From assembly GCF_051105105.1 (NCBI RefSeq), contig NZ_CP185339.1: a DNA stretch of 64,000 bases. The stretch is one strand, 5' to 3'. The notes under the pieces were generated by a model. The model made no database searches. It was given only the letters and a program-made list of their open reading frames with translations, and was not told the origin of the DNA. The translations under genes were made by a program, and so were the position numbers. Position 1 is the first letter of the stretch; each line of letters begins with the position of its first letter. Shown here in pieces: positions 2,743-21,379 of this stretch. Source of the DNA: Nannocystis pusilla (GTDB taxonomy: Bacteria > Myxococcota_A > Polyangia > Nannocystales > Nannocystaceae).

Positions 2743-3564
2743 TCAGCCGATCTGGGCGTTGGCGATCCGGTGGACCAGCCAGAACAGGTTGGGGCCGTGG
2801 CGGTCGGGCAGCTCGCGCTTGACCGCGCGGAGGCTGTCGCACAGCTGCTCGAGGCCGCGGTCGAGGACGGCGGCGCGGCGGGCCTCGAGGCGCTGGCCGA
2901 CGCCGATCGGCTGCCAGCTGGTGCCCCACGGGATCGCCCAGGTCAGCACGCGGTCGCCCGCGCGCAGGGCCTGCGACAGGTTGCTGTCGGTGAGGGTGAC
3001 GGGCTCGTCGCGCAGCAGGTCCTTGCCGCGCACGCGCTGCTTGCCGGGGTTCACGTCGTCGACGGCGACCAGCAGCAGGCGCGCCTGCAGGCAAGCGTCG
3101 AGGGCGGCGCGCTGGCGGCCCTCGAGCGGCACGCCGGCGCTGGTGAACATGTCGACCAGGCGGATGCCCTTGGGGTCGCGGTAGCCGTACAGGCAGAACG
3201 TCTGGGCGGCGCGGCGCAGGTCGGCGTTGTTCTTCTCGGCCGGCGTGGCGCCGCCGAAGAAGCCGTTCATCACCTGGGCGACGAACGGACCGAACCGCCG
3301 GGTGGCGAAGCTGCCCAGCATCGACTCGACGCGCTCGAAGTCGGCGCGCTCGTAGCGGCCGAACTTGGGGGTGAGCGGTCGCTCGTTCGTCAGCGCCGCC
3401 GCGGGGGCCGGATTGCGCGCGCGAGCGGCCTCCTGGGCCTGCGCGATCTCCTGCTCGGCGGTGAGGAACGGGCCGGTGCCACGACGCTTGCGCCGGGAGT
3501 CCGAGCGGGGCGTCGACGCGGCGGGCGGGGCTGCAGTGCCGGGTTGTTCGGGTGTGTCGGTCAT
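2743..3564 (-). CDS. hypothetical cytoplasmic protein (disordered Arg/Lys-rich N-terminus); last gene of a four-gene lipoprotein operon
   Basis: Within ORF 2743..3789-, Met (MTDTPEQPGT...) at 3564 overlaps the stop of the upstream gene by 4 nt (ATGA). Upstream of that Met the ORF is Arg-rich junk. No family recognised. Confidence 0.5.
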   Translation of the reverse strand: MTDTPEQPGTAAPPAASTPRSDSRRKRRGTGPFLTAEQEIAQAQEAARARNPAPAAALTNERPLTPKFGRYERADFERVESMLGSFATRRFGPFVAQVMNGFFGGATPAEKNNADLRRAAQTFCLYGYRDPKGIRLVDMFTSAGVPLEGRQRAALDACLQARLLLVAVDDVNPGKQRVRGKDLLRDEPVTLTDSNLSQALRAGDRVLTWAIPWGTSWQPIGVGQRLEARRAAVLDRGLEQLCDSLRAVKRELPDRHGPNLFWLVHRIANAQIG

Positions 3565-4914
3565 GGGTCCGTCATTTCGGCGCACGCGCCGTCGAAGGCG
3601 ATCCGCGGCAGCTCGATGGCCAGGCTCGCGTTCGGAGCGGTCGGCGTCGGGTCGTCGCCGTTGCCGTAGCACGGCTCGTCGGAGCCGGCGGCGTACGCCT
3701 CGATGCGCACGTACAGCTCCTCGTGGGCCATCGGCGCGTCGTCCCACACCAGCGGCTCGATGTCGCGGATCTTGCCGAGTTCGTCGCAAGGGACGGTGGT
3801 GACGCCGTCGAGCACGATCGGCGGGTTCTGGCCGTCACGCAGGGCGGCCGTCGGGACGACCTGGAGGTCGGCGTCGAGGACGGTGATCCGCGCGCGGTCG
3901 ATCACGAGGCCCGGCTCCGGAGTGCACGTCGTGAAGGGCAGCTCGTCGGGGCCGCTGAGGAGCGCCAGCGAGAACGAGAAGCCGGCCTCGATCGGCGCGA
4001 GGAAGCTGGCGATCGTGAAGTCGGCGAACAGGTCGACGCTCTGGAAGCCCTCCGGCACCAGCGTGAAGGACGTGACGTCGGCGTCGAGCATGGGCACGGC
4101 GAGCTTTTTGCCGTTCGCGCCGAGGCCGGCGACCGAGAGGGTGTAATCGCCCGGATCGAGCGACTCGGTGAAGGTCTGGGCGGTGGTGGTGCAGGGGAAG
4201 CGGAGCTTCTTGGCGGTCGGCCCGTCGATCGCCACCTCGATGTCGGTGAGCGCGAGGCCGCCGCAGAAGGCGCTCGGGTTGCCGCTCATGAGCTCCGGAC
4301 GGACGACGAGCTGAGCGCCGGCGCTGTCGCCGACCTCGAGGCCGGCGCGATCGCCCGCGCAGGACGGGTCGGCGAGGTCGGTGTAGCCGTCGCGGTCGTT
4401 GTCGATGCCGTCGCTGCACTGCGGGGCGCCGACGATGACGACGTTCGAGCGGCTTGCCCTCGCCGGCCGCGCTGATCACAACGTCCTGGGCGGTGGAGGC
4501 GAGGACCTTCTTGCAGGAGGTGTCGACCTCACTGCCGTCGGTGTCGACGACGCTGGTGGGCTCGTCGGCGCAGAACTGGACGTCGCGCCGGCCTAGCGCG
4601 GTGACCGTGACGCTGTACGTGCCGGCGCCCACCTCCGGCCCGGGCGCGCGGGCGTCTTGGTCCTCGAAGCCGGCGGGGAAGCACGGGAACTCGCGCTCGT
4701 CGAGCAGGGCGTTGCCCCCGTCGCGGGTGCTGACGCGGATCCGGCTGATGCCGAGCTCCGTGCACTGATCGACCGAGACGAGCTCGGCGGCGTCGCTGAC
4801 CTCGGCCTGGTCGAGCGGCTGCAGGCGCCAGCGGACCCAGAAGCTGGGGTCCTCCGCGCAGCCGGCCGCGGCGACGGTCGCGAGCGCGAGGGGAGCGAGG
4901 CGGGCGCGGAGCAT
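3561..4914 (-). pseudogene. lipoprotein with CarboxypepD_reg-like beta-sandwich repeats and a CxDGxDNDxDGxxDxxDxxC motif; reading frame broken by a 1-nt indel near 4443
   Basis: The N-terminal half reads in the frame of ORF 3835..4950- (MLRARLAPLALATVAAAGC lipobox; ...VISAAGEGKPLE). The C-terminal half reads in the frame of ORF 3561..4289-, which is open back to a stop at 4476-4478 (...VVIVGAPQCSDGIDNDRDGYTDLADPSCAGDRAG...). The join is at about 4443. Motifs LRPGTY / VGAGTYSVTV / LDPGDYTLSV recur. Confidence 0.5.
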
Positions 4915-15679: not shown

Positions 15680-16069
15680 TCAGTCCTGCCGGGGCGGGTC
15701 TTTGCGGTCGAAGCGCTCGCGGGCGCGGGCGATCTCGCCGCGGTGATCGCCGGCCCAGGCGGCGAGGGCCTGGACCGGGTCGAGCAGGGTGCGGCCGAGC
15801 TCGGTCAGCTCGTAGTCGACGCGCGGCGGGACCGACGGGGTGACGGTGCGGGTGACCAGGCCGTCGCGCTCGAGGCCGCGGAGCGTCAGGGTCAGCATGC
15901 GCTGCGAGATGCCCTCGATCGCCCGCCGCAGCTCGTTGAAGCGCAGCGGGCGGTCGCTCAGCATGCTGACCACGAGGACGCTCCACTTGTCGCCGACGCG
16001 GCTCAGGACGTCGCGCACCGCCACACAGGTCTCTTGCTGATGCATGTCGCGGACTCGGTTCCCTTTCAT
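15680..16069 (-). CDS. HxlR-family winged-helix transcriptional regulator
   Basis: [23 protein letters not shown]...RFNEL...[19 protein letters not shown] is the HxlR signature. Start at ATG 16069 or ATG 16045 (the latter has an AAGGGA RBS). Confidence 0.7.
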
Positions 16070-16131: not shown

Positions 16132-16470
16132 TCATCGCCGGCCAGGCTCGCCGCCCGCATGGGAGACACCCGGCTGGCCGGCCGCCAGCATCGCCTGGAC
16201 TGCGGCCGGGTCGGTGTAGGGGATGGCGGCGCCACAACCGGCGCACACGCGCAGGGACATCGGCGCGCGCAGGATGTCCGACTCCGAGGGCCGGCTGAGG
16301 AAGCCGCGCTCCGGGACGTGGGCGCAGGTCTGCACGGGCTGGGCGTACCAGCCGTTGACGCCGTGCTCGAGGTTGCGCCACGGCGAGAGGAAGTAGAACT
16401 CCCGACCGTGGCAGATCGAGCACGGCGTGGTGGCGAGGGCGGACGACGGCGAGGGCGAGGACGAGGCCAT
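16132..16470 (-). CDS. small hypothetical protein with two CxxC pairs (zinc-ribbon-like)
   Basis: Tail of spurious ORF 16132..17568-. [10 protein letters not shown]...[11 protein letters not shown]...[10 protein letters not shown], 112 aa, directly upstream of the HxlR gene. Weak evidence. Confidence 0.25.
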
Positions 16471-16569
16471 GCCGAGGAGTATGCCGCGGACGCCGCCGCG
16501 GCGGCATCGTGGAGACTTCCGTGGCGGACCGCCGATGCGTGGGGTGCATGACGGATCCGCGCGCTTGCG

Positions 16570-16620
16570 GGCCTGTCCCGGGGGACAGGCGAAAAGAAGA
16601 TGTCCTTCGAGACATCTCGG
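16570..16620. repeat. repeat cluster of the same family (CAGG and ATGTC variants)
   Basis: GCCTGTCCC-GGG-GGACAGGC hairpin and AGATGTC-CTTCGA-GACATCT hairpin. Confidence 0.55.
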
Positions 16621-16646
16621 AGGCGGGAGACCAGCGGGCGCCGAGT

Positions 16647-17921
16647 TCAGCGGTGGCGCGGGCGTTTGGGCGCGCTGCCGGGCAGCTCGGCCTCCGCTGC
16701 GACGGCGTCGAGGCGGCGGCCGATGTCGCTGATGGTGGCAGGGGCGACCTCGACCGCGCGCGCCTCTGAAGGCCAGCGCGCGAGGGCGGTTCGCACCTCG
16801 TCGACGATCGCTCGCGCGGTCTTCTCGTCGATCGAGGCGCGTCGGGCCAGGCGCAGCATGTGCTGCCAGGTCGGGCGCCGGCCCTCGCCGTCGAGCGTCA
16901 TCGTGTGCTCCCCGCCGGGCCCGGCGACGAAGTTGAGGTCGTAGGCGGGCGACAAGCGCCAGCCGCCCTCGCGGTCCATGAGGAAGGAGAAGTTCTTGCC
17001 GTGGTCGTCGCGGTTGTGCGCGAGCACGTTGAACACCATCTGCCGGAAGGCCCGGCGCACGTCGGGCTGGGCGCGCGTGAGGTGCATGGTGACGCGCAGC
17101 AGCATGTCGTAGTCGAGGCTCGGCTCGCGGAAGTCGGCGTCGAGCAGGCCGGCGAGGGTGTGGACGTGGGTGCGCGCGCCGGCCTCGTCGCGGTCGAACC
17201 GACGCACGCCGAAGAAGCGCTGGCCGCTTCTGGCCACGAACAGCCGCGTGTCGGGCACCTCGAGCCCCGCGTGGCGCGCGAGGCGGGCGTAGACGTGCTC
17301 GATCGCCCCGGCGTCGCGCTGCTCGTCGCCGGCCCAGAATTTGATCAGCCACGGCTCGTGATCCGGCGGCGGCACGGCTGTCCCATAGACCATGCTGTCC
17401 CCGCGGACAGCCACGAGCACCTTCGGCCGCGCGCCGCCGGGCGAGCCGCCGGCGTGCTGCAGCACCGGCAACAGCTCCGACGGGTGACCGCGGTAGACGT
17501 CCTCGGCGGCGGCTGCCAGCTTGTCGAGGGCGATCGACCGGTCCGCGACGGGCTCGGCGTCGGTGCACGGGTGGAACGTCAGGGCGCCCATGGTGCGCGC
17601 GCCGAGGTGCGCCAGGCGGTCGAGCGGCGACAGCTGCTCGGGCACGAGGCCGCGCTTGCGGAACAGCCGGTCCATGAGCAGGAGGCCCCAGCCGTCGGGC
17701 AAGGCGTCGGCGAACACGCCGTGCAGGCGGGCGGCGGGAGCTTTGAAGATACCTGGCTGAAGGGCCAGCTTGAGCGGCGAGAGCGAGGGACCGCGGGCCA
17801 GCCAGGTCGCCGCGTATTCGAAATAGATCGCGCGTTCGTGCAGCAGCAGGTGGCCGACGACCTCGCGGTCGTCGGGGGCGCGCTCGAGCCGGACCTCGAG
17901 CTTGCGGGTCACCGGGCTCAA
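16647..17921 (-). CDS. hipA: HipA-family serine/threonine kinase toxin (type II toxin-antitoxin)
   Basis: HipA N-terminal domain plus the kinase core (GGARPKVLV; [11 protein letters not shown] motif). Overlaps the upstream HTH gene by 4 nt. Confidence 0.85.
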
Positions 17922-18211
17922 CGCCGGCCTCGCTGACGCGCGGGCGCCTGCCCGCGCTGCTCGAGCTCGGCCAGCGAGCGCGCCGGCGGCGGGGCGAACA
18001 CCGCCTCGAACTGCTCGAGGCAGCCGAGCGCGAGCGCCAGCTTGAGCAGGTTGTCGAGCGCGATCTGGCCGGTCGTTTCGAAGCGCTTGACGGTGCCGGC
18101 GCTGATGCCGGCCCGCTCCGCCAGCGTCTCGCGCTTCCAGTCGCGGGCCAGTCGCAGCGCCTTCATGCGCCCGGCCAGGCGCTGGGCGACCTCCTCGGCG
18201 GTGTACAGCAC
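17918..18211 (-). CDS. hipB: HipB-like XRE-family helix-turn-helix antitoxin
   Basis: LRLARDWKRETLAERAGISAGTVKRFETTGQ is an XRE HTH. GTG start. ATGA overlap with hipA. Confidence 0.65.
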   Translation of the reverse strand: MLYTAEEVAQRLAGRMKALRLARDWKRETLAERAGISAGTVKRFETTGQIALDNLLKLALALGCLEQFEAVFAPPPARSLAELEQRGQAPARQRGRR

Positions 18212-18212
18212 A

Positions 18213-18280
18213 AGGGATAAGATAGTTGCTTTTGTGCAGGAGACAAGGTGGTTAAGGATAAAATATTATCTATTATCCGA
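18213..18280 (-). promoter_or_regulatory. AT-rich palindromic operator/promoter island upstream of hipBA
   Basis: GGGATAAGATAG (18215-18225) and the 23-bp palindrome GGATAAAATATTATCTATTATCC (18256-18278), within a local AT island in a very GC-rich genome, immediately 5' of hipB. Resembles HipB operator half-sites (TATCC/GGATA). Confidence 0.45.
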
Positions 18281-18290
18281 GCGGCGGAGC

Positions 18291-18328
18291 GCGACAAAGC
18301 CCGCCGCCTCGAGTGAGGGAGCGGGCTT
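18291..18328 (-). terminator. putative intrinsic terminator after pntB
   Basis: Inverted repeat AAGCCCGC...GCGGGCTT. On the minus strand it is followed by TTTGTC, just 3' of the pntB stop (18350). The T-tract is weak. Confidence 0.35.
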
Positions 18329-18349
18329 GGCGGGGTGCCAGGTGCCAGC

Positions 18350-19762
18350 TCAGCCGCGGAGCTTGCCGAGCAGGGCGTCGACGTTCTTCTTGGCGTCGCC
18401 GTAGAGCATGCGGGTGTTCTCTTTGTAGAAGAGCGGGTTGTCGACGCCGGCGTAGCCGACGCCCTTGCCGCGCTTCATGACGATCACCGTCTTGGCCTTC
18501 CACACCTCGATCACGGGCATGCCGGCGATCGGGCTGGAGGGGTCGTCCTGGGCGCCGGGGTTGACGATGTCGTTGGCGCCGATGACCAGCACGAGGTCGG
18601 TGTTCGGGCAGTCGTGGTTGATCTCGTCCATCTCGAGGACGATGTCGTAGGGCACGTTGGCCTCGGCCAGCAGCACGTTCATGTGGCCGGGCAGGCGGCC
18701 CGCGACCGGGTGGATGGCGAAGCGGAAGTTGGCGCCCGCCTTGCGCAGGATCTTGGCGATCTCGGCCACCGGGTGCTGCGCCTGCGCGACCGCCATGCCG
18801 TAGCCGGGGACGACCATGATGTTGCGAGCGGAGCGCATCAGCTCGACGGTGCCGTCGAGGTCGATCTCGCGGCACTCGCCGACCGGCTGGGCCGCCGCGC
18901 CCTTCGGCGCCGGGGCGCCGCCGTCGGAGCCGAAGCCGCCGGCGATGACGCTGAGGAACGAGCGGTTCATCGCCCGGCACATGATGTACGAGAGGATCGC
19001 GCCGCTGCTGCCGACCAGCGCGCCGGTGACGATCAGGAGGTCGTTGCTCAGCATGAAGCCGGCGGCCGCGGCGGCCCAGCCGGAGTAGCTGTTGAGCATC
19101 GACACCACGACGGGCATGTCGGCGCCGCCGATGGCCATGACCATGTGCACGCCGATCACGCTGGCGATGCCGGTCATGATGAGCAGCGGGGTGAGTCCGT
19201 GGTGCGGGTCGGCCAGGAACTGGTAGCCGAGGAACACGCAGCCGAGCACCATCGCCAGGTTGAGCAGGTGGCGGCCGGGCAGGGTCAGCGGCTTGCCGCC
19301 GATGCTGCCGCGCAGCTTGAGGAAGGCGATGATCGAGCCGGTGAAGGTGATCGCGCCGATGAACACGCCGATGTAGACCTCGACGTTGTGGACCGTGTCG
19401 GCGTGGCTCGCGGCGCCGAGGTACGACGACAGGCCGACCAGCACCGCGGCGGCCCCGACGAAGCTGTGCAGCACCGCGACGAGCTCGGGCATCGCCGTCA
19501 TGGCCACGCGCGCGGCCAGGACGGCGCCGATCAGCGCGCCGGGGACGATGGCGGCCGCGAGGATGGCGAAGCCGCTGCCGCTGATGTTCATCAGCTTGTC
19601 GGCGTTCATGCCGACGGCGGTGGCGACGACCGCGAGCAGCATGCCGATGATGCCGTAGAGGTTGCCGCGGCGGGCGGTGTCCTGGCGCGAGAGACCGCCG
19701 AGGCTGAGGATGAACAGCGCGCTGGCGGCGATGTAGATGACGGTGAGGAGGCTGTACGACAT
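18350..19762 (-). CDS. pntB: NAD(P) transhydrogenase subunit beta
   Basis: Multi-TM N-terminus plus the NADP(H)-binding dIII domain ([15 protein letters not shown]...GANDIVNP...VIVMKRG). Confidence 0.9.
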
Positions 19763-19780: not shown

Positions 19781-21379
19781 TTACTTGCGGAACATCTTCA
19801 GCATGCGCTGGGTGACGAGGAAGCCGCCGGCGACGTTGATCATCGCCAGCAAGATGGCGGCCGCGCCGAGCAGGGTCGCCGCCGAGGTCGGGGCGCCCGA
19901 GATCTGCAGCATGCCGCCGATGATGATGATGCCGCTGATCGCGTTGGTGACGCTCATCAGCGGGGTGTGCAGCGCCGGCGAGACGCTCCAGACGACCTGG
20001 TAGCCGATGAAGCAGGCCAGCACGAACACGGTGAAGTGGCTGAGGAAGCTCGACTTGTCGTCGACGCCGAGGCCGATGCCGACCAGCGCGAGGCCGGCGA
20101 GCACGAGCGGCCACGGGCTCGACTCTCCCGCGGGCGGACCGTGACCGTGGCCGTGGCTCTTCGGCGGCGGCGACGAGGGGCGCGGCGGCTCGGGTGCGGC
20201 AGCGACCGGCGCGGCGGGCTTGGGCGCGGCGGCGGCAGGGGCGGGCGCCTGCGCAGGCGCGGCAGGCCGCGGCGGGGGCCACTTGAGCTCGCCCTGGTGG
20301 GTGATGAGGCAGCCGCGCACGACCTCGTCGTTCTCGTCGATGCGGAAGCCCGCGGCCTTGCCCATGTCGTCGAGCAGGTGGCACAGGTTGGTGCCGTAGA
20401 GCTGGCTCGACTGCGCGGCCATGCGGCTCGGCAGGTCGGTGTACCCGATGATCGTGACGCCGGCGTGGACGACCTTCTCGCCGGGCGAGGTCAGCTCGCA
20501 GTTACCACCTGTCTCGGCGGCCAGGTCGACGATGACCGAGCCGGGCTTCATGCGCTCGACCATGTCGCGCAAGATCAGCTTGGGCGCCGGCTTGCCGGGG
20601 ATCAGCGCGGTCGTGACGATGATGTCGACCTCCTCCGCCTGGCGGCGGAACAGATCCATCTCGGCGGCGATGAAGGCCGGGCTCATCTCCTTGGCGTAGC
20701 CGCCGACGCCGGTGCCGTCCTCGTGGAAGTCGAGCTCGAGGAACTCGGCGCCCATGCTCTCGACCTGCTCCTTGACGACGGGGCGGGTGTCGAAGGCGCG
20801 GACGATCGCACCGAGGCCGCGGCCGACGCCGATGACGGCGAGGCCGGCCACACCGGCGCCGATGACCAGCAGCTTGGCCGGCGGGACCTTGCCGGCGGCG
20901 GTGATCTGGCCGGTGAAGAAGCGGCCGAACACGTTGGCGGCCTCGATGACGGCGCGGTAACCGGAGATGTTGCCCATCGACGACAGGGCGTCGAGCTTCT
21001 GCGCGCGGGAGATCCGCGGCACCGCGTCCATGCCGAGCACGGTGACGCCGCGGCTGCGCAGGCGCTCGACCAGGTCGGGGTTCTGCGCCGGCCAGATGAA
21101 GCTGATGAGCACCTGGCCCTCGCGCGCGAGGTCGGCCTCGAAGCTGCTCGGCGGGCGGACCTTGAGGACGATGTCGACCTGTCCCCAGAGACCTTCGGCA
21201 TCGGCCGCGATCCCGCAACCGACGCTGGCGTAGGCGTCGTCGCCGAACTCGGCGGCCGCGCCGGCGCCAGACTCGACCACCACGGAGAAGCCCTGGCTCT
21301 GCAGGCGCTTGGCGGTGTCAGGGGTGGCAGCCACCCGGCGCTCGCCCGGGTAGATCTCCTTCGGAATGCCGATCTTCAT
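19781..21379 (-). CDS. pntA: NAD(P) transhydrogenase subunit alpha (dI domain fused to membrane dII-alpha part)
   Basis: MKIGIPKEIYPGERRVAATP...LVIGAGVAGLAA Rossmann-like dI domain, then a Pro/Ala linker and the TM region. 18 nt upstream of pntB. Confidence 0.9.
   Translation of the reverse strand: MKIGIPKEIYPGERRVAATPDTAKRLQSQGFSVVVESGAGAAAEFGDDAYASVGCGIAADAEGLWGQVDIVLKVRPPSSFEADLAREGQVLISFIWPAQNPDLVERLRSRGVTVLGMDAVPRISRAQKLDALSSMGNISGYRAVIEAANVFGRFFTGQITAAGKVPPAKLLVIGAGVAGLAVIGVGRGLGAIVRAFDTRPVVKEQVESMGAEFLELDFHEDGTGVGGYAKEMSPAFIAAEMDLFRRQAEEVDIIVTTALIPGKPAPKLILRDMVERMKPGSVIVDLAAETGGNCELTSPGEKVVHAGVTIIGYTDLPSRMAAQSSQLYGTNLCHLLDDMGKAAGFRIDENDEVVRGCLITHQGELKWPPPRPAAPAQAPAPAAAAPKPAAPVAAAPEPPRPSSPPPKSHGHGHGPPAGESSPWPLVLAGLALVGIGLGVDDKSSFLSHFTVFVLACFIGYQVVWSVSPALHTPLMSVTNAISGIIIIGGMLQISGAPTSAATLLGAAAILLAMINVAGGFLVTQRMLKMFRK

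Follow-up and report, generated by a model that had tools for sequence, protein, structure and literature searches.

A chromosomal hipBA toxin–antitoxin operon of the Nannocystis lineage with a probable promoter and two-site HipB operator

A 64,000-nucleotide (nt) stretch of Nannocystis pusilla DNA (contig NZ_CP185339.1; the whole stretch is hereafter called the window) contains a chromosomal type II toxin–antitoxin operon, hipBA, which belongs to the Nannocystis lineage and lies between pntAB and a gene for an HxlR regulator (hxlR). The operon is probably intact and equipped with its own promoter and with a HipB operator made up of two predicted sites, O1 and O2, spaced 41 bp centre to centre. 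Both genes are on the minus strand: hipB (17918–18211, GTG start) encodes an XRE-type helix-turn-helix (HTH) antitoxin and repressor of 97 amino acids (aa), and hipA (16647–17921, TTG start) a HipA-family Ser/Thr kinase toxin of 424 aa. The two open reading frames (ORFs) overlap by 4 nt, TTGA, the junction reading cgt-TGA in the hipB frame and ttg-agc in the other. A preliminary description of this DNA had recognised the two ORFs and read the overlap as ATGA, which is the sequence found at this position only in close relatives; it had thereby missed the TTG start of hipA, as well as the promoter and the probable leaderless start of hipB.

The assignment of these genes to a hipBA toxin–antitoxin module, also made in that description, was upheld by domain content, catalytic residues, predicted fold, the 4-nt overlap, purifying selection and the existence of plasmid-borne homologues. 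The HipA ORF, which carries the GGARPKVLV motif and the 11-residue kinase motif pointed out previously, matched Pfam HipA_C (PF07804; 2.9e-51, 174.6 bits against a cut-off of 30.5, residues 160–383) and Couple_hipA (PF13657; 6.2e-17, 62.4 bits against a cut-off of 22.5, residues 20–116), the N-terminal subdomain being fused to the kinase. Among proteins of solved structure, E. coli HipA is the closest in sequence (E=2.5e-12), and the alignment pairs S160 with S150, the catalytic D305 with D309, the Mg-binding D328 with D332 and SPGGARPK with S150-VAGAQEK. K194, D305 and D328 do not vary among 20 homologues of 49–92% identity, in which the conservation of S160 is 90% or higher. An AlphaFold2 model of HipA (predicted local distance difference test score (pLDDT) 78.5, predicted template-modelling score (pTM) 0.83) retrieved E. 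coli HipA (3dnt; E=1.6e-16, template-modelling (TM) score 0.69) and S. oneidensis HipA first in Foldseek, followed by HipT and CtkA. As judged from the sequence, hipA encodes a full-length HipA-family kinase with its putative P-loop serine, catalytic Asp and Mg-binding Asp intact. The upstream XRE-type ORF, likewise as previously described, matched Pfam HTH_3 (2.8e-08), fell below the NCBIfam HipB equivalog model NF007271 (21.9 bits against a cut-off of 79) and aligned with E. coli HipB chains at E=0.017 only; on these scores it is best classified as a generic XRE protein. Its C-terminal tail is basic and conserved (RQRGRR). The ratio of non-synonymous to synonymous substitution rates (dN/dS) against five relatives was 0.14–0.20 for hipB and 0.18–0.35 for hipA, values that indicate purifying selection on both.

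The closest HipA proteins are those of Nannocystis punicea (91% identity) and N. pusilla (86%), and the order pntA-pntB-hipB-hipA-(small ORF)-hxlR recurs in the genomes of both species and on two metagenomic contigs, which makes the module an old resident of the lineage; its GC content also agrees with that of the genome. A wider search with HipA gave 6,098 proteins at E≤1e-10 among 8,000 candidates scored, and homologues of 39–45% identity, annotated as HipA toxin beside an HTH regulator, were found on 937 plasmid records. The window protein is a typical member of a HipA subfamily with DxLPDGWG, GGARPK and NRDDHGKN motifs, to which NCBI gives the name type II toxin-antitoxin system HipA family toxin, and the modules of the sister species are already so annotated. 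At least 166 related loci (numbered here with the prefix L) were taken from genome and metagenome collections and from close relatives, giving 167 sequences with the window; scans of genome and metagenome contigs listed matches at 39–53% identity, and the close relatives were collected individually. A hipB homologue lies directly upstream of hipA in 123 of these 167 sequences, and in 98 of the 123 it shares 4 nt with hipA. The HipB proteins of the family share the recognition helix S-x-[AG]-[ST]-[LVI]-[KR]-[RK]-F-E, an S-[IL]-x-E-L motif and the basic tail R-x-RGRR, the last being kept across phyla.

Comparison of 117 non-redundant upstream regions from related hipBA loci with shuffled sequences revealed one recurring motif, a 16-bp palindrome of the form nGATA-N6-TATCn. 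The core GATA-N6-TATC was present in 15 of these regions against 0.1–0.5 expected, and no other spacing from 0 to 16 was enriched in either orientation: GATA-N13-TATC occurred in three loci only (the window, L030 and L038; 0.5 expected) and TATC-N10-GATA in a single locus (0.3 expected). In a first run, a symmetric 16-bp matrix with consensus tGATAyTATArTATCa scored 9 bits or more in 90/117 loci compared with 2.5 in shuffles; it was then retrained with the window and its close relatives (L081–L086) left out. With the retrained matrix, the distance between the two best sites of a locus is 40–42 bp in 80 of 83 loci, 58 of them having exactly 41 bp. The pair occupies −60/−19 relative to the hipB start in the Nannocystis clade, together with a predicted promoter of the leaderless type, and −48/−7, −86/−45 or −101/−60 in other subgroups. 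In one large subgroup, whose HipB begins M-[IV]-S-L (e.g. L056, L033, L032, L104 and L129), the second operator is at −7 (e.g. GATATAATGATATC) and spans the hipB start codon, so that the first hipB codons (ATG ATA/GTA TCA) belong to the palindrome, while the first operator of this subgroup, at −48, is centred on TATAAT. A further arrangement was seen upstream of hipB in three loci of 65–75% identity (L083 at 3666–3692, L170 and L171), where an inverted repeat in the TATC...GATA orientation, CTTTATCGG-N9-CCGATAAAG, brackets a strong −10-like TAGAAT or TATAAT; these loci also have GG(G/A)CCATATTTGGTCC-type 16-mers 41 bp apart, and the inverted repeat may be a diverged or additional operator.

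The region upstream of hipB in the window is an AT-rich island, as had been noted, with a GC content of 0.45 over 18200–18299 (100 nt) and 0.38 in the 72 nt before hipB, compared with 0.73 for the hipBA coding sequence. Two elements reported in it were recovered: GGGATAAGATAG at 18214–18225 (+), and a 23-bp palindrome, GGATAAAATATTATCTATTATCC, at 18256–18278 (+), which occurs once in the 64 kb and never in 100 shuffles but is imperfect (11-1-11, with 9/11 positions complementary). The suggestion that the island holds HipB operators gains in silico support from the family analysis; the GGATAA-N11-TTATCC geometry attached to that suggestion does not, and the inner 16 bp (18256–18271) are the probable operator because N=6 is the only enriched spacing. 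This predicted main operator, O1 (AGATAATATTTTATCC on the coding strand), extends from −60 to −45 relative to the hipB start. Its GATA-N6-TATC core at 18257–18270 is found once in the 64 kb (0.01 expected), and the retrained matrix ranks it as the best site in the window, with 11.9 bits against 2.6 for the next. The outer half-site GGATAAT (18272–18278) is a tandem copy of GATAATA, and the 23-bp palindrome would comprise the family operator O1 and an extra GGATAAT copy upstream. N. punicea does not keep this outer arm although its HipB has an identical helix-turn-helix, and the arm is likewise not conserved in N. pusilla and in the metagenomic relatives. The predicted weak second site, O2 (AGCAACTATCTTATCC, 18215–18230, −19 to −4), contains GGGATAAGATAG and lies over the predicted −10 box and transcription start. 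With 1.4–2.0 bits it ranks 3rd to 5th among the ~64,000 positions of the window and is the second-best local site, and its distance from O1 is the family-typical 41 bp, a 41-bp direct repeat having also been reported by a separate repeat search. In this arrangement GGGATAAGATAG would be the right half of O2, coinciding with the −10 box. The likeness of the half-sites to the GGATA/TATCC of E. coli operators is superficial, as their orientation is opposite and TATCC-N8-GGATA is absent from the window and the family; as a candidate in the window it gave two matches with two mismatches against four expected.

We propose a promoter for hipBA with a −10 hexamer TATCTT (18219–18224, −), 7 nt upstream of the hipB GTG, and a −35 hexamer TTGTCT (18241–18246, −), the two separated by a 16-nt spacer. 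The −10 register is kept in five distinct upstream sequences of relatives, which read TATACT, CATAAT or TATTCT followed by 7 nt (AyCyCTT) and ATG or GTG, and at the −35 register the relatives have TTCCTC, TTGCTT or TTGTCT, a weak match to consensus. Because a consensus promoter scan of 16400–18500 gave none on the hipBA coding strand, conservation is the sole basis of this promoter. The only sigma-70-like consensus match in that interval is GAGACA-18-TATTAT at 18240–18269 (+), antisense to hipBA and directed towards pntB, and probably arises incidentally from the AT-rich palindrome. No Shine–Dalgarno (SD) sequence precedes hipB in the window or in the five relative loci aligned at the start codon and, with a −10 box only 7 nt before that codon, the hipB mRNA is probably leaderless and would start at about G18211. 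For hipA, an SD-like purine run is formed by the last hipB codons, 7–14 nt before the hipA start (17921–17941, −, in the window); an SD-like core is present in 85 of 93 loci and a G at −10 of the hipA start in 91 of 93. As these codons encode the HipB tail and form the SD-like run at the same time, conservation alone cannot separate protein function from a coupling signal. An AT-hook-like, minor-groove reading of the R-x-RGRR tail was considered and no claim is made for it, since conservation does not distinguish it from the SD-like run.

Taken together, these features suggest the following mechanism. The operon would be transcribed from a weak sigma-70-type promoter (TTGTCT, 16 nt, TATCTT, 7 nt, GTG) into an mRNA on which hipB is leaderless, and hipA would be translated by coupling from its weak TTG codon, so that HipB should stay in excess of the HipA toxin. 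HipB dimers, probably with HipA as co-repressor, would occupy O1, immediately before the −35 box, and also the weaker O2, which covers the −10 box together with the start site; both would face the same side of the helix about four turns apart, and their occupation would autorepress the operon and sequester HipA. Upon loss of HipB, growth would be arrested through phosphorylation of an essential target by free HipA; the HipA and HipT kinases already characterised suggest, by analogy, that this target would be an aminoacyl-tRNA synthetase.

Several observations weigh against this mechanism or parts of it. Symmetry was imposed on the matrix, which is AT-rich, and its centre coincides with the TATAAT −10 box of many AT-rich genomes; some of the signal could thus come from promoters instead of operators. 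The two hexamers of the promoter are themselves weak (8/12 matches, below the scan threshold), and O2 is a poor match to the matrix. In N. punicea, despite its identical HipB helix-turn-helix, O1 reads GGGCAAAATTTTAGCC and reaches only 4.5–6 bits; more generally, the sites at −60 and −19 in sister species are weaker (−8 to 6 bits), with N. pusilla and the metagenomic relatives below N. punicea. It follows that the exact GATA/TATC bases are not strictly required or that repression differs between species. Either recognition by HipB depends chiefly on the AT-rich core (AAnATTTTA) and on DNA shape, or the regulation is drifting. The 72-nt island is also only 51–61% identical to that of five relatives (L081, L082, L167, L169 and L170, compared over 18140–18283). 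The third-codon positions of hipB are 69–78% identical to the same relatives, a rough comparison because high GC at third positions inflates this identity. With regard to the toxin, HipA shares ~20% identity with every characterised HipA, and its target therefore cannot be inferred from homology.

Two other explanations concern the island. That the whole 23-bp palindrome (GGATAA-N11-TTATCC) and GGGATAAGATAG act as E. coli-like HipB operators with unusual spacing is, in our judgement, quite unlikely, although the palindrome does exist and occurs only once in the window, the island holds all three GGATAA-like half-sites (the outer arm being a third GATAAT copy) and GATA-N13-TATC is shared with L030 and L038. 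Three loci against 0.5 expected is not an enrichment of the kind seen for N=6, and the outer arm is not conserved in N. punicea and N. pusilla though their HipB proteins are nearly identical to that of the window. The opposite orientation of the E. coli half-sites and the chance-level occurrence of TATCC-N8-GGATA in window and family argue in the same direction, and half-sites ~17–18 bp apart centre to centre would be unfit for a compact HTH dimer, unlike the 5-N6-5 operator of S. oneidensis (PMC4150777). The island might instead serve only as a promoter, UP element or DNA-melting region, its palindromes being by-products of AT-richness, which would account for the low GC content (0.35–0.50) maintained in relatives while the island sequence diverges, for the location of O1 at −60 to −45, the usual position of a UP element, and for the resemblance of the matrix centre to TATAAT. 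We nevertheless hold this to be very unlikely, since composition-matched shuffles rarely yield the palindrome (0.1–0.5 against 15 loci for the core and 2.5 against 90 loci for the matrix), since neither the 40–42 bp pairing of sites nor the sites overlapping the start codon in another subgroup are properties of promoters, and since the G and C flanks of the palindrome fall outside any −10 or UP consensus.

As regards function, an intact HipA–HipB pair could serve mainly in phage defence by abortive infection, or in addiction to a former mobile element, rather than in persistence or stress-induced arrest. Conjugative and mobilizable plasmids indeed often carry homologues, defence and stabilisation are among the roles that reviews assign to toxin–antitoxin systems (PMC8262856), and PADLOC weakly matched HipA to PDC-M03A, a candidate defence family (E ~1e-3), and HipB to regulators of the RmrA/CapH type. 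These PADLOC matches are marginal, however, and the housekeeping flanks, the synteny conserved within Nannocystis and the genome-like GC content, which give no sign of a recent mobile element, count against such a role; we regard it as unlikely, while noting that it concerns the role of the module and is compatible with the molecular mechanism proposed above. It is extremely improbable that the module is decaying or inactive, with a non-toxic kinase and a hipA poorly translated from TTG. The TTG codon where relatives have ATG and the weak matches of O2 and of the promoter might be taken as signs of decay, but TTG or GTG starts of hipA are found in 13 of 93 family members, both ORFs are full length and 91% identical to those of N. 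punicea, their dN/dS values remain within 0.14–0.35 and every aligned catalytic residue is intact. The account that we favour as the probable one is that of an intact operon with a promoter and a two-site HipB operator.

The comparative result is the useful part of this analysis, as the locus alone would be one more hipBA module. The two-site layout recurs within the subfamily in Myxococcota, Planctomycetota, Acidobacteriota, Bacteroidota and Proteobacteria and on plasmids, and it corrects the assumption that HipB operators generally resemble the TATCC-N8-GGATA of E. coli. It also supplies a testable regulatory model, in which the operator sequences are defined, their phasing is fixed at 41 bp and the start is predicted to be leaderless. 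A broader proposal, which we put forward tentatively and regard as more doubtful than the account of the operon itself, is that of a very large HipBA subfamily, spanning several phyla, with a repression architecture of its own, comprising two 16-bp GATA-N6-TATC operators at a fixed 41 bp, a HipB with SxxEL and RxRGRR motifs and a hipA coupled through a 4-nt overlap. The fixed spacing suggests a HipA-bridged HipB2-O1/HipB2-O2 complex, which would be unlike those of E. coli and S. oneidensis, and the kinase target might be other than GltX, TrpS or LysS. No member of this subfamily appears to have been characterised so far. In a search for a place in the Hip Tree, the motifs NRDDH(GKN), PDGWG and GGARPK were not found in the part of Table S1 of PMC8262856 that was covered, and nothing specific was found in the literature on hipBA in myxobacteria or on leaderless hipB.

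The surroundings of the operon were described previously as pntAB on one side and an HxlR regulator on the other. This holds for PntB (18350–19762) and PntA (19781–21379), upstream of hipBA, and for the HxlR regulator (~15680–16069) as the downstream flank; hxlR is, however, not adjacent to hipA, from which it is separated by a Cys-rich ORF of 112 aa (16132–16470, −). This small ORF has a CxxC...C...CxxC pattern, including CSICHG...CAGCG, and no Pfam match; it is kept in N. punicea (86%) and in the metagenomic locus L167 (72%) and is absent from N. pusilla L082 and from L169 and L170. A GC-rich hairpin after the pntB stop (18297–18328, −; an inverted repeat with 14-nt arms, 86% complementary), whose sequence is kept in relatives, is probably the pntB terminator and the upstream edge of the hipBA regulatory island. 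The spacer between pntB and hipB, about 140–150 bp in the window and N. punicea, measures 516 bp in L082 (N. pusilla), where 3195–3640 contains two copies of a ~100-bp GC-rich repeat (roughly 3360–3465 and 3500–3605); this pair suggests an inserted repeat element.

Among known systems, the gene organisation (hipBA) of the window operon fits clades I, II and IV–VIII of the Hip Tree clades I–XI of Gerdes et al. 2021 (PMC8262856). A homologous kinase core is found in HipBST (E. coli O127 and Legionella pneumophila): HipT(Lp) matches the family profile with E=8e-16 and Foldseek gave TM scores of 0.79–0.82 (target-normalised), and in HipBST, as in the window, an HTH HipB is encoded upstream. HipBST is nevertheless tricistronic, with the N-terminal subdomain split off as the antitoxin HipS, whereas the window operon is bicistronic, its 424-aa HipA has a fused Couple_hipA domain and there is no separate hipS; an identification as HipBST was rejected for these reasons.

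E. coli K-12 HipBA (Hip Tree clade I; PDB 3DNV and 4YG7) shares with the window the bicistronic hipB-hipA order, an XRE-HTH HipB and a two-domain kinase. The P-loop Ser, the catalytic Asp and the Mg-binding Asp align, the folds agree with a TM score of 0.69 and both promoter regions have several palindromic operators, those of the window being predicted. The two HipA proteins are only ~20% identical, and HipB ends in the basic RQRGRR in the window and in a C-terminal Trp in E. coli. The E. coli kinase targets GltX. Identity with a K-12-type HipBA was rejected, as HipB scores 21.9 bits where 79 are called for and TATCC-N8-GGATA occurs at chance level. The E. coli operators are four TATCC-N8-GGATA sites separated by 10, 21 and 10 bp (PMC3920265, PMC4150777), whereas in the window two sites of the GATA-N6-TATC kind are predicted, their centres 41 bp apart and their half-sites facing the other way; the gene overlap, 4 nt in the window, is 1 nt in E. 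coli (PMC4150777).

The operator layout may also be compared with that of S. oneidensis MR-1 HipAB (PDB 4PU3–4PU5), where four GTGTA-N6-TACAC operators are separated by 34 bp (PMC4150777). The S. oneidensis genes are 3 bp apart, whereas those of the window overlap, and S. oneidensis HipA matches the family profile with E=7e-08 over ~45 residues, in the catalytic motif only. The half-site sequence, the number of sites (four against two) and the phasing (a separation of 34 bp against 41 bp centre to centre) also differ between the two systems. Both nonetheless have the same 5-N6-5 operator geometry and regularly spaced repeated sites, one of which reaches the hipB start, those of the window being predicted; their HipA folds match, and the C-terminal tail of S. 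oneidensis HipB is thought to be functionally important, as may be the case for the conserved tail in the window.

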